Below the pieces are notes generated by a model, which worked only from the letters and a program-made list of their open reading frames with translations, was not told where the DNA came from and searched no databases. The position numbers and the translations under genes are program-made. Below, one piece after another: positions 48,381 through 57,011 of a stretch of 64,000 nucleotides of DNA; positions within the stretch are counted from its first letter, which is position 1, and the number at the start of each line of letters is the position of its first letter. Source of the DNA: Candidatus Iainarchaeum sp. (lineage in GTDB: Archaea; Iainarchaeota; Iainarchaeia; Iainarchaeales; JAZDDZ01); NCBI GenBank assembly GCA_043809245.1, contig JAZDDZ010000054.1, forward strand, positions 1 to 64,000. Reading direction: 5' to 3'.

Positions 48381-48902
48381 ATGGGCGAAAGCAACAACCA
48401 CATGAGGGAAATAGAGATTGAAAAGGTCACGGTAAACATGGGTGTTGGCCAGACAGGGCAGGAACTCGACAAGGCATGCACTATCCTTGAGAACATCACG
48501 GGAATGAAGCCATTGAGGACTTCATGCAAGGTCAGGATTCCGACCTGGGGTATAAGGGAAGGCCTGCTTATCGGCGCGAAGGTTACCTTGCGCGGAAAAA
48601 AAGCCGAGGAATTCCTTAAAAAGGCATTGAATGCAAAGGACAATTCGGTTAAGGGGAAAAGCTTTGACCAGAAAGGAAACTTTGGCTTTGGGGTAAAGGA
48701 GCATATTGACATGCCGGGAGTAAAATACGACCCAAAGTTAGGCATAAGGGGCTTGGATGTGCTTGTTACGCTTAAAAGGCACGGGGGATACAGGCTTAGA
48801 AGGAGAAAAATCGGCAAGAAAAGCATTGGTTCAAGGCACTCATTGAAAAAAGCCGAGGCAATGGAGTTTGTGAAAAAAAAATTTGGGGTTGAAGTGAAAT
48901 GA
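48381..48902 (+). CDS. rpl5: 50S ribosomal protein L5
   Basis: KVTVNMGVG, KVTLRG, GNFGFG.KEHID, YDP. Confidence 0.97.
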   Translation: MGESNNHMREIEIEKVTVNMGVGQTGQELDKACTILENITGMKPLRTSCKVRIPTWGIREGLLIGAKVTLRGKKAEEFLKKALNAKDNSVKGKSFDQKGNFGFGVKEHIDMPGVKYDPKLGIRGLDVLVTLKRHGGYRLRRRKIGKKSIGSRHSLKKAEAMEFVKKKFGVEVK

Positions 48903-49063
48903 GCGAAAAAGGAAAACTTGGCTTTGGAAAAACGCAGTCCGCGGGAAAAAAGTGCAGGAGATGCAAGAACAGGCGCGGGCTTATCTCAAAGTATGGAATG
49001 AAGCTTTGCAGGCGCTGCTTCAAGGACGTTGCCTTGCAGATGGGTTTCAAGAAATTCGATTAG
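48899..49063 (+). CDS. rps14: 30S ribosomal protein S14 (54 aa, absent from ORF track)
   Basis: MSEKGKLG..CRRC..GLISKYG..LCRRCF..MGFKKFD*; between rpl5 and rps8. Confidence 0.95.
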   Translation: MSEKGKLGFGKTQSAGKKCRRCKNRRGLISKYGMKLCRRCFKDVALQMGFKKFD

Positions 49064-49096
49064 TGAGATTAATGAAAGATTTAGGAAAAATATATA

Positions 49097-49157
49097 GAGG
49101 AAGGGAATCGGGAGGAACCTGGAACTGAAGGGAAACCTAGGTTTCCCTGCGGTTCGG
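49097..49157 (+). repeat. Structured intergenic element, copy 1 (two hairpins)
   Basis: 51/62 aligned columns identical to 56933..56993; contains AGGGAAACC-TA-GGTTTCCCT. Confidence 0.88.
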
Positions 49158-49181
49158 ATGGGGTTCAAAAAATTTGACTGA
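49158..49181 (+). pseudogene. Duplicate rps14 3' end (MGFKKFD*), synonymously diverged
   Basis: ATG GGG TTC AAA AAA TTT GAC TGA vs ATG GGT TTC AAG AAA TTC GAT TAG (49040-49063). Confidence 0.88.
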
Positions 49182-49203
49182 ATTTGGAGTTTGTGGAGAG
49201 TGA

Positions 49204-49602
49204 ATGAGAATGACATTGGTTGACCCGATTGCTGACGCGCTAGTCAACATAAAGAACCACGAGAATGCCTCGAAAAAACTATGCATTGTCAGGCCTGCGG
49301 CAAAGCTTTTGGGCGAAATACTGCGCGTCATGCAGGAGCAGGGCTACATCAGCACCTACGAGTTCGTTGATGATGGAAGGGAGGGCCTTTACAAGATAAA
49401 CCTTATGGGAAAAATAAACGAGTGCAAGGCAATCAAGCCCCGGTACGCAGTCAGGAAAAACGAGTTTGAAAGATACGAGAAAAGGTATCTTCCCGCAAAA
49501 GACGTGGGCTCGTTGATTGTGAGCACCCCCCGCGGGGTTATGACGCACAATGGCGCAAAGGAAAAGGAAATCGGCGGAAGGCTGATAGCTTACATTTACT
49601 GA
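49204..49602 (+). CDS. rps8: 30S ribosomal protein S8
   Basis: DPIADAL..IKN, IVSTPRG, GGRLIAY. Confidence 0.97.
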   Translation: MRMTLVDPIADALVNIKNHENASKKLCIVRPAAKLLGEILRVMQEQGYISTYEFVDDGREGLYKINLMGKINECKAIKPRYAVRKNEFERYEKRYLPAKDVGSLIVSTPRGVMTHNGAKEKEIGGRLIAYIY

Positions 49603-49631
49603 ATGAAAAAAATTGATGGAAAAGTGGGATT

Positions 49632-50195
49632 ATGGAAGACTTTGAAAGGAAAATCAGCTTGCCGGAAGGATTTGAGGCTTCGGCTGAGGGAAGCAAGATG
49701 ACTGTCGGCTTCAAGGGAAAACAACTGGTTAAGGACTTCCACGCGCAATCGCTTTCATTCGATGTAAAGGGAAAAGAAATAGTGGTTTCAATCGCGAACG
49801 GAAAGGCAAAGAAAAGGGATTTGGCTGTGTTGAACGCAGTAAATTCCGAGATAAACAACATGCTTGCAGGGTTGTCAAAGGGATTCGAGTACAAGTTAGA
49901 GGTCGTGTACGCGCACTTCCCGATGAACATCAGTGTCAAGGAAAAAGTTGTGGAAATAAGCAATCTCTGCGGAAGCAAGATGGTCAGAAGGGCGGCAATT
50001 GTCGGTGAAACAAAGGTAGAGATAAAGGGAAAAGAGATATTTGTCAGGGGCGCGGACAAGGAAGCCGCAGGGCAGACAGCGGCAAACATAGAGCAGGCAA
50101 CAAGGCTGTCGGGAAAAGACGTAAGGGTATTCAACGACGGCATTTACATTGTTTCAAAGCCGCATGTTTCAATTGAAGAGCGTGAAAAGAAATGA
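49632..50195 (+). CDS. rpl6: 50S ribosomal protein L6
   Basis: YAHFP, GQTAANIEQ, D.RVF.DGIY. Confidence 0.96.
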   Translation: MEDFERKISLPEGFEASAEGSKMTVGFKGKQLVKDFHAQSLSFDVKGKEIVVSIANGKAKKRDLAVLNAVNSEINNMLAGLSKGFEYKLEVVYAHFPMNISVKEKVVEISNLCGSKMVRRAAIVGETKVEIKGKEIFVRGADKEAAGQTAANIEQATRLSGKDVRVFNDGIYIVSKPHVSIEEREKK

Positions 50196-56900: not shown

Positions 56901-56932
56901 AAAAAGGAGCTAAGATGAAATAAAAATCTGCG

Positions 56933-56993
56933 GAGGAAGGGGGTCAGGAAGACCCTGAAACTGGGGGGAAACCCTAGGTTTCCCGCGGTTTGG
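56933..56993 (+). repeat. Structured intergenic element, copy 2 (two hairpins)
   Basis: TCAGG-AAGAC-CCTGA and AAACTG..GGGAAACC-CTA-GGTTTCCC..CGGTTT; homologous to 49097..49157. Confidence 0.88.
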
Positions 56994-57011
56994 AAGGAAA
57001 AGAAAAAGTGA
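56994..57011 (+). pseudogene. Duplicate rps13 3' end (KEKKK*), synonymously diverged
   Basis: AAG GAA AAG AAA AAG TGA vs AAG GAA AAA AAG AAA TAA (56883-56900); low complexity lowers confidence. Confidence 0.65.

Follow-up and report, generated by a model that had tools for sequence, protein, structure and literature searches.

Many genomic islands integrate at the 3' ends of tRNA genes or of guaA, and in fungal mitochondria mobile elements that encode a homing endonuclease bring a foreign gene 3' end with them. Insertion sequences of the IS1634 type, which are autonomous, of the DDE class and bounded by inverted ends, have direct repeats that vary from tens to hundreds of bases. Rickettsia palindromic elements, repetitive extragenic palindromic (REP) sequences and bacterial interspersed mosaic elements (BIME), and repeats of the MITE type (for miniature inverted-repeat transposable element) are small, non-coding, hairpin-forming and multi-copy, and lie at gene boundaries. 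The element e14 lies between icd and the icdC pseudo-end, and several synonymous changes result when it is excised (PMC13626634). A comparable arrangement was found at rps14 in a 64,000-nucleotide (nt) stretch of Candidatus Iainarchaeum sp. (positions 1 to 64,000 of contig JAZDDZ010000054.1, assembly GCA_043809245.1; hereafter the window). Here a small non-coding hairpin element stands between two versions of the gene end that encode the same peptide, and it belongs to a family in which such pairs of ends differ mostly by silent changes.

An operon of archaeal ribosomal-protein genes occupies 46-52 kb of the window, with rps14 followed by rps8; all features given here lie on the plus strand. 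The rps14 gene (48899..49063) is an intact open reading frame (ORF) for a zinc-type uS14 of 54 amino acids, supported by tblastn to the S14 of 29 relatives. Its last 24 nt (49040..49063), the upstream copy of the repeat and the working gene end, read ATG GGT TTC AAG AAA TTC GAT TAG, while the downstream, displaced copy (49158..49181) reads ATG GGG TTC AAA AAA TTT GAC TGA; both encode MGFKKFD followed by a stop. The six base differences among these 24 positions consist of four silent third-position changes and the change of stop codon (TAG versus TGA). The first-pass annotation of this DNA had already pointed out that the gene end and its duplicate specify the same peptide and differ only synonymously, which is confirmed in the sequence and proved to be a property of the whole family. 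It had also divided the interval into a 33-nt spacer and a 61-nt element. The unit between the repeats is indeed 94 nt, without an ORF, but the division had to be corrected: the unique spacer, without similarity to other copies, comprises just the 12 nt between stop codon and element (49064..49075), and shared sequence starts at about 49076. From there the 5' module of the element (49076..49107, defined by alignment within the genome) runs from an A/T-rich part with a TATA-like stretch into a purine-rich, GGAGG-like part. The conserved core (49108..49157, defined by covariance-model matches and covariation) ends in an imperfect hairpin (49118..49157), the last G of which is the 3' end of the element.

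Behind the displaced copy, the native rps14-rps8 spacer (49182..49209), which contains the rps8 ribosome-binding stretch and resembles the spacer of the relative L087, leads to rps8 (49210..49602; 130 amino acids, identified as an ORF and by relatives). The 29 relatives represent other families of the order, and their gap between rps14 and rps8 measures 5-88 nt, with a median of 14 nt. In the window it is 146 nt from the first stop and 28 nt from the stop of the downstream copy, which therefore sits at the ancestral place of the gene end. The landing point is thus 24 nt before the gene end, and the earlier proposal that the native end was displaced agrees with these positions. The two copies are not in one frame because they are 118 nt apart. 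When four random substitutions were placed in the seven sense codons (200,000 simulations), all four were silent in 0.02 % of cases; this figure overstates the surprise for the rps14 site alone, because the site was picked for its silent pattern, a concern that is removed by the family data given below. A look for sequencing runs turned up no RNA data set, and three DNA runs of one study yielded low-depth pieces of 151 nt at 49196-49889 and left 49040-49181 uncovered.

When 49064-49160 was compared by BLAST with the window's own 1.48 Mb assembly (G000), four further copies were observed. With a covariance model made from these five, the count for the genome rose to 11 (E <= 1.5e-10), and of 150 further genomes sampled within the order 7 were positive, none with more than 15 copies. 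At least 113 stretches in genome_contigs matched a degenerate pattern of the core. Among the matches listed, the record titles were mostly Candidatus Micrarchaeota, in addition to Iainarchaeum, Altiarchaeota/-ales, Woesearchaeota and Aenigmatarchaeota, and one record was identical to loci of G004, a genome from the window's own order. Five genomes reached through the pattern loci contained 29, 23, 15, 25 and 5 copies, respectively. Identical subfamilies of the element occur in different families of the order. Orientation relative to neighbouring genes, as given by crude ORF calls, was mildly biased (77 versus 60 upstream, 97 versus 62 downstream). Because many copies adjoin contig ends (in G151-G154 many lie within 300 nt of one), short-read assemblies of these genomes are probably broken at the element. 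A literature search that covered few subscription journals and no supplements turned up no account of anything similar.

The element is non-coding, about 60-90 nt long, and consists of a variable 5' part and a conserved core of about 55 nt that ends in a long imperfect hairpin. In the consensus of 79 aligned cores, a purine-rich stretch precedes this hairpin. The single-sequence fold of the 186-nt region was no better than those of shuffled sequences (z = -1.38), so the support for the structure rests on covariation. In five copies, 17 pairs were observed, five of them compensatory. In the 79 copies, 14 pairs were predicted, seven with compensatory changes, and the closing pair was CG in 55, UA in 11 and GC in 10; columns fixed by the search pattern are invariant by construction in this alignment, whereas the covarying columns were not fixed. 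All but one of 120 copies (119) have the last paired G, which marks the 3' end. Conservation between genomes does not extend to the 5' side; in the window genome, 10 of the 11 copies have a common module of about 30 nt (A/T-rich, then purine-rich) and one copy is 5'-truncated. A TATA-like A/T-rich stretch lies in this module at window positions 49075-49097, and several copies stand directly upstream of genes or tRNAs, from which a promoter role of the module seems possible. One subfamily (L083, L085 and L086, at G004:C25:7035, C31:2329 and C20:25588) contains an extra double hairpin of about 70 nt in the hairpin loop, which may be a nested insertion or an expanded structure. An Rfam scan of 48700-49400 gave three matches, all far under the gathering scores (E >= 7.8). 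Likeness to a C/D box, a tRNA, the signal recognition particle RNA or an origin recognition box was a by-eye impression only and was dropped.

Flanking repeats were scored by local alignment of the 75-80 nt after the element with the 250-300 nt before it, and the 99th percentile of mismatched flanks was used as the control. Repeats above this control were found in 17 of 40, 22 of 74 and 61 of 184 copies in successive sets, the last being all usable copies, of which 123 were without a repeat. The check suggested by the first-pass annotation, a covariance-model search joined to a test for gene-end matches, produced a family, gene-end duplicates at other copies too and repeats at a third of the copies. 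In 57 of the 61 cases the downstream repeat begins within 8 nt of the element end, at the hairpin base. The repeats of these 57 copies are 15-84 nt long (84 nt being the limit of the analysis span) and 19 of them are perfect; a repeat of 105 nt was observed in G156, and the overall range is 15 to >100 nt. The start at the hairpin base together with the perfect repeats shows that the duplication arises at insertion, normally from resident sequence. Between the upstream repeat and the core lie 0-207 nt, and 5'-truncation is seen in some copies. The repeated sequence is often the 3' end of an upstream co-directional gene; tRNA 3' ends, gene 5' ends and the ends of convergent genes were also observed. 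Genes with duplicated ends include those for ribosomal proteins, an RNA polymerase subunit, SMC, GMP synthase and tRNAs. In the window genome itself, the copy at C44:22595 has a perfect 34-nt repeat within the 3' part of a gene, and at C4:15247 the residues LGNR and the stop are duplicated with TTA versus TTG. No common core sequence was seen at the junctions.

No recurrent ORF family was found beside the copies when neighbouring ORFs were clustered (81 copies; a maximum of 5 loci among the 80 screened). Likewise, a search of the contigs for distant repeats that would mark the hairpin as the end of a large integrated element gave only low-complexity exact 13-mers, a search that recoded repeats would escape. 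Tandem arrays of element plus repeat, with a period of about 118-180 nt, are present at L147:6705-6868, G153:C8:8803/8980, G153:C10:22033/22195, G151:C11:1621/1756 and G154:C42:180/303; unequal recombination between flanking repeats would be expected to produce them.

The divergence between the two gene ends was scored for the rps14 pair and for 17 pairs whose upstream repeat is entered by a long ORF (>=85 codons). The codon differences comprised 51 silent and 13 replacement changes, where a random change in the scored codons is silent with f = 0.235. Under a null in which one copy is purified and the other is neutral (0.38 silent expected), P was 1.2e-11, and when the largest pair was left out the ratio of 33:13 still gave P = 3.7e-6. 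Only silent differences were found in G004:C17 (54-nt repeat, 4:0 silent to replacement, including Ser TCC/AGC), an RNA-polymerase-subunit-like end in G004 (3:0), the GMP-synthase end in G159 (66-nt repeat, 2:0), L266 (73-nt repeat, 5:0) and the last 34 codons of SMC in G156 (25:0). A few pairs look like decay (L105, 0:3; L152, 0:2; L077, 0:2). At three loci, the first 18-31 nt of a recoded pair show no difference. In G195, the end of the GMP-synthase gene is present in three copies (L302, G195:C134:2470-3800), the two extra ones about 1 kb downstream and each behind a different hairpin, and they differ by silent changes only, among them Arg CGT/AGG, which extends the phenomenon beyond one hairpin family. 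Judged from the sequences, these data show a protein-level constraint on the displaced ends, so that a displaced copy is not free to decay, and the one at rps14 appears to have stayed under protein-level selection as well.

The SMC end of G156 could be followed across species. G167, with an SMC tail 89 % identical to that of G156, has a decayed version of the same element at the same junction after the SMC stop. The displaced copies of the two genomes differ in 8 of 17 codons, all silently (P for eight of eight by chance ~1e-5), and both retain TGA, while over the same codons the working copies show 8 silent changes and 3 replacements. The displaced copy of G167 is shorter, as 17 codons are gone, the first one included; in our reading this is explained by a 51-nt deletion between two short repeats. 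Relatives of 77 % and 70 % identity have no element there. Neutral decay of a target-site duplication, which the first-pass annotation had considered incompatible with the rps14 pair, is thus ruled out by the 51:13 ratio, and its inference that both copies had been coding until recently is upheld by the predominance of silent differences in the family pairs and by the 8:0 ratio between species. Within G156, and again within G167, the two copies have the same choices of Leu codons (TTG versus CTC), which argues against a distant foreign source.

For the rps14 locus, the closest relative found was contig L087, in which S8 is 89 % identical and the DNA flanks of rps14 and rps8 are 77.6 % and 76.3 % identical, respectively. 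Between its rps14 and rps8 stands an element of another subfamily, after the stop and without a displaced copy. The L087 gene end has GGT, TTC and GAT in common with the upstream copy of the window and differs from it at 2 of 24 bases, compared with a flank divergence of about 23 %. At the G152 locus the direction is the opposite, since relatives there have CCG and ATC in common with the displaced copy; G229 has the element but no displaced copy, and from the closest relative, G214, the element is missing. This patchy presence at the G152 locus and at rps14 is compatible with gain and loss. A codon-usage test for the native copy gave no consistent direction. These comparisons single out neither a copy that changed nor one that is foreign.

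A second copy of the element in the window (56922..56994), detected by BLAST and by the covariance model, lies between rps13 and rps4, and its flanking repeat is ambiguous. Its flanks possibly contain a duplicate of KEKKK and the stop with silent changes and TAA versus TGA; they are A/G-rich and of low complexity, and the repeat score was under the control threshold. Two of the 11 window-genome copies (C9 and C49) are read in frame inside ORFs without a stop. One, from G000:C9:3104 onward, lies in a phosphomannomutase-like ORF of 493 amino acids with the insert at residue 137, and the other, from G000:C49:37849 onward, lies near the start of a 1418-amino-acid ORF, 1.4 kb from a tyrosine recombinase gene.

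The element-bearing genomes were also screened for enzymes. Reverse transcriptase (PF00078) was found in none of four such genomes, which are 91-97 % complete, and Piwi in none of five. The TnpB-type domain (PF07282) was present in two of four, with none in G004 (15 copies) or G015, and the Y1 transposase (PF01797) in two of five, with none in G004, G015 or G022. Tyrosine recombinases were found in four of four and are uninformative because all 14 control genomes contain them as well. In the window genome, no element lies within 2.5 kb of a Y1 or TnpB gene. In G151, one copy stands 146 nt upstream of the genome's only IS200-type Y1 gene (L235, G151:C41:39-699), and no copy is found on the other side of that gene.

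The element was compared with several established classes. A MITE was not accepted, as the two termini do not form inverted repeats (the boundary on the 5' side varies or is truncated, and the inverted repeat present is the internal 3' hairpin), the target duplication is not short and fixed (15-84 nt and more, 105 nt in G156), and no autonomous partner with the same ends was found, either as a recurrent ORF family or within 2.5 kb of Y1 or TnpB genes. A REP sequence with its REP-associated tyrosine transposase (RAYT) does not fit, as the Y1 gene is not in each genome and is not flanked by repeats, G151 having one on one side only. In the case of an IS200/IS605 TnpB omega-RNA, TnpB is limited to two of four genomes and is never adjacent in the window genome, and for a retroposon without long terminal repeats, like a short interspersed nuclear element (SINE), PF00078 is missing from all four genomes. 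A comparison with integron attC sites showed AAC/GTT triplets that bound the lower stem, but these columns are fixed by the search pattern, and the copies are solitary and lie in ribosomal-protein operons. A bulge-helix-bulge intron was rejected since the consensus has one 3-nt bulge and a 1x1 loop, and the 11 candidate interrupted loci were adjacent genes and not split ones. Splicing or translational bypass was rejected on the same two grounds and for want of a frame rule, which is seen from the distances between copies of 118 nt (rps14), 148 nt (L266) and 183 nt (G156). A translation cassette was rejected because a long ORF starts at the element end in 18 of 168 cases, compared with 13-24 at shifted controls. 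As in elements of the e14 type, two versions of the 3' end of the target gene flank the element and the gene is intact; an integrase was not found in the element, which is free of ORFs and has 94 nt between the repeats at rps14 and, at other loci, the core and a further 0-207 nt.

We consider the hairpin to belong to a family of small non-coding elements that is, or formerly was, mobile in DPANN-type archaea and Altiarchaeota. On landing, the target stretch comes to lie on both sides, in front of the element and directly behind the hairpin base. A gene hit in its last codons stays whole, as its stop is supplied by the front copy, and a second copy of the gene end is stranded behind the element. 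Versions of the locus with and without the element would then coexist for a long time and exchange, the element being lost by recombination between the repeats and gained or refreshed by recombination with other genomes in tracts that end at the element. Each copy would at times serve as the working gene end and both would be exposed to selection, which is the logic of e14 at icd and of phage 21 without the enzyme. We are highly confident of the family and of its repeat anatomy. Allele cycling as the reason for the silent-only divergence is offered tentatively, and we would sooner expect it to fail than to hold, while the entire reading (mobile hairpin family, target duplication and cycling) seems to us evenly poised between right and wrong.

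Several observations weigh against this reading. A gene-less unit of 100-200 nt has no known route to excise and re-enter. Long coexistence of both allele states over a species split is a strong demand, and recombination between repeats of 74 % identity, as in G156, should be rare. An element-free allele of the rps14 locus or an element-free close relative was not found, and the outgroups give no single direction of change, as L087 at rps14 points one way and the relatives at the G152 locus the other. Of the 12 matches that the regular expression behind 189 copies gave in the window genome, two were false, and a true copy escaped it. A neutral look is seen in pairs of other orientations (about 17:25 in a hand tally with less certain frames). 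Finally, co-directional pairs with a start codon at the junction have a ratio of 42:3 and those without it 9:10 (Fisher 1e-4, or 3e-3 without L194); the grouping was made post hoc, and the link that it shows is not predicted by this reading.

The last of these points belongs to the idea that the displaced copy is translated on its own, from an in-frame start at the junction (ATG here) next to which the fold brings the GGAGG-like stretch, so that selection would act on a short product or on a ribosome relay to the next gene. An in-frame ATG, GTG or TTG is indeed found at 11 of 21 junctions of co-directional gene-end pairs, compared with 4 and 7 in the other frames, and from G156 to G167 the displaced SMC copy has retained its coding character. 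However, the products would be tails of 7-34 residues from unrelated proteins (S14, SMC, RpoB-like and GuaA) with no plausible common function, a ribosome relay puts no constraint on amino acids, long ORFs start at the element end no more often than at the controls, and the G167 copy retained the rest of its codons after the loss of 17, its first included; we therefore regard self-translation as unlikely. An equally unlikely explanation is that one copy is foreign, which recasts the first idea of the first-pass annotation, a foreign 3' end arriving with the element, as DNA repair: a fragment from a diverged lineage, ending at a fragile or cleaved hairpin base, would have been joined illegitimately to the homologous gene while homology guided the recombination of its other side (homology-facilitated illegitimate recombination). 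It would account for the resemblance of both copies to working alleles, for a junction that is always at the hairpin base, for identical subfamilies in different families of the order, and for the closeness of the upstream rps14 copy to L087 against the background of its flanks. The perfect repeats, some up to 80 nt, show instead that resident sequence was duplicated, and the 34-residue tails of G156 are identical despite 25 differing codons, in a tail that is variable in relatives. Moreover, the common Leu codons in G156 and G167 point to an origin in the same lineage or to conversion, and at rps14 the flanks on both sides are about equally diverged from L087. With codon usage directionless and the outgroups in disagreement, a foreign origin of the upstream end was not substantiated.

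In a third proposal, also raised by the first-pass annotation, the hairpin acts as the scaffold of a guide RNA and the native copy behind it as guide or homology arm, through which element-free alleles would be targeted by an RNA-guided nuclease or by recombination; recoding would let the working copy escape, as in TnpB omega-RNA or a home-and-rescue drive. In TnpB and Cas12 systems, too, the guide lies 3' of the scaffold, and the proposal would explain why the displaced copy tracks functional alleles while the working copy differs silently. The effector proteins do not co-occur, however (TnpB-type domain in two of four genomes, Piwi in none of five), no element lies within 2.5 kb of the TnpB and Y1 genes here, and there is no recurrent neighbouring ORF. 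In addition, about two thirds of the copies (123 of 184) have no repeat, the recoded pairs at three loci do not differ in the first 18-31 nt, where a guide would act, and recoding extends over as much as 105 nt, far beyond the length of a guide; the guide explanation is thus unsupported and very improbable. We hold slightly less doubtful, though still quite improbable, a natural "home-and-rescue" unit composed of hairpin, recoded working end and preserved native end, in which the native end would act against element-free alleles as a guide or homology arm, the recoded end would shield the host gene and make it complete, and a host enzyme or another that binds the hairpin would drive the unit, giving an enzyme-less gene-end drive across several archaeal phyla. 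Least probable of all, and hardly credible to us, is an ordinary target-site duplication that drifted or an artefact of co-assembled strains. Perfect repeats in young copies, the neutral look of the pairs in other orientations and the fact that metagenome-assembled genomes (MAGs) can be strain mosaics agree with it, but drift is contradicted by the silent bias, which holds against the most favourable neutral null, and by the eight silent and no replacement changes of the displaced copy across species. As for an artefact, many MAGs that come from different studies and assemblers show the pattern, according to record titles among the matches listed, and with differences only 1-6 nt apart a read or k-mer would presumably need to have the hairpin end already joined to the downstream version.

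If the reading of a mobile hairpin family with target duplication is true, genome-reduced archaea (Micrarchaeota, Iainarchaeota, Altiarchaeota and others) carry widespread and undescribed tiny mobile elements, which enter the ends of essential genes without harm because insertion duplicates the target. Displaced ends that evolve like working genes would then imply a lasting cycle of presence and absence of enzyme-less units, or another use of the displaced copy. In practice, MAG assemblies are probably broken at such elements, and extra small ORFs and pseudo gene ends can mislead annotation and analyses of selection. The question posed to mobile-element biology is which enzyme cuts precisely at the hairpin base and duplicates tens of target bases.

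Compared with known systems, the hairpin element resembles small palindromic repeats in some respects; as in Rickettsia palindromic elements, copies lie in frame inside ORFs (2 of 11 in the window genome). Unlike these elements, REP, BIME and MITE, it has no terminal inverted repeats, one precise end and a long, variable target duplication, with Y1 in two of five genomes. A precise 3' end, a 5' end that varies or is truncated and target duplications that differ in length are features in common with SINE-like retroposition by target-primed reverse transcription, which differs in that reverse transcriptase was found in none of four genomes and the element has no A-rich or other simple tail. Long variable direct repeats are likewise found in IS1634-type insertion sequences, whereas no DDE partner was found with the hairpin element. 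In fungal mitochondria, too, the native 3' end is left downstream as a remnant and the copy on the element side completes the gene, but the elements here have no ORF and no co-occurring endonuclease family. As in islands that target tRNAs, repeats of tRNA 3' ends are present at some copies. The nearest likeness in the two gene ends is to e14 and phage 21 at icd of E. coli, where two versions of the gene end flank the element, the front one working and the native one behind, with mostly silent differences. Excision belongs to the description of e14, while the hairpin element is known from sequence alone. In contrast to e14 and phage 21, the unit here is about 100-200 nt long without an integrase or any other gene, and it has dozens of different targets per genome, repeats of very variable length and no common core at its junctions.

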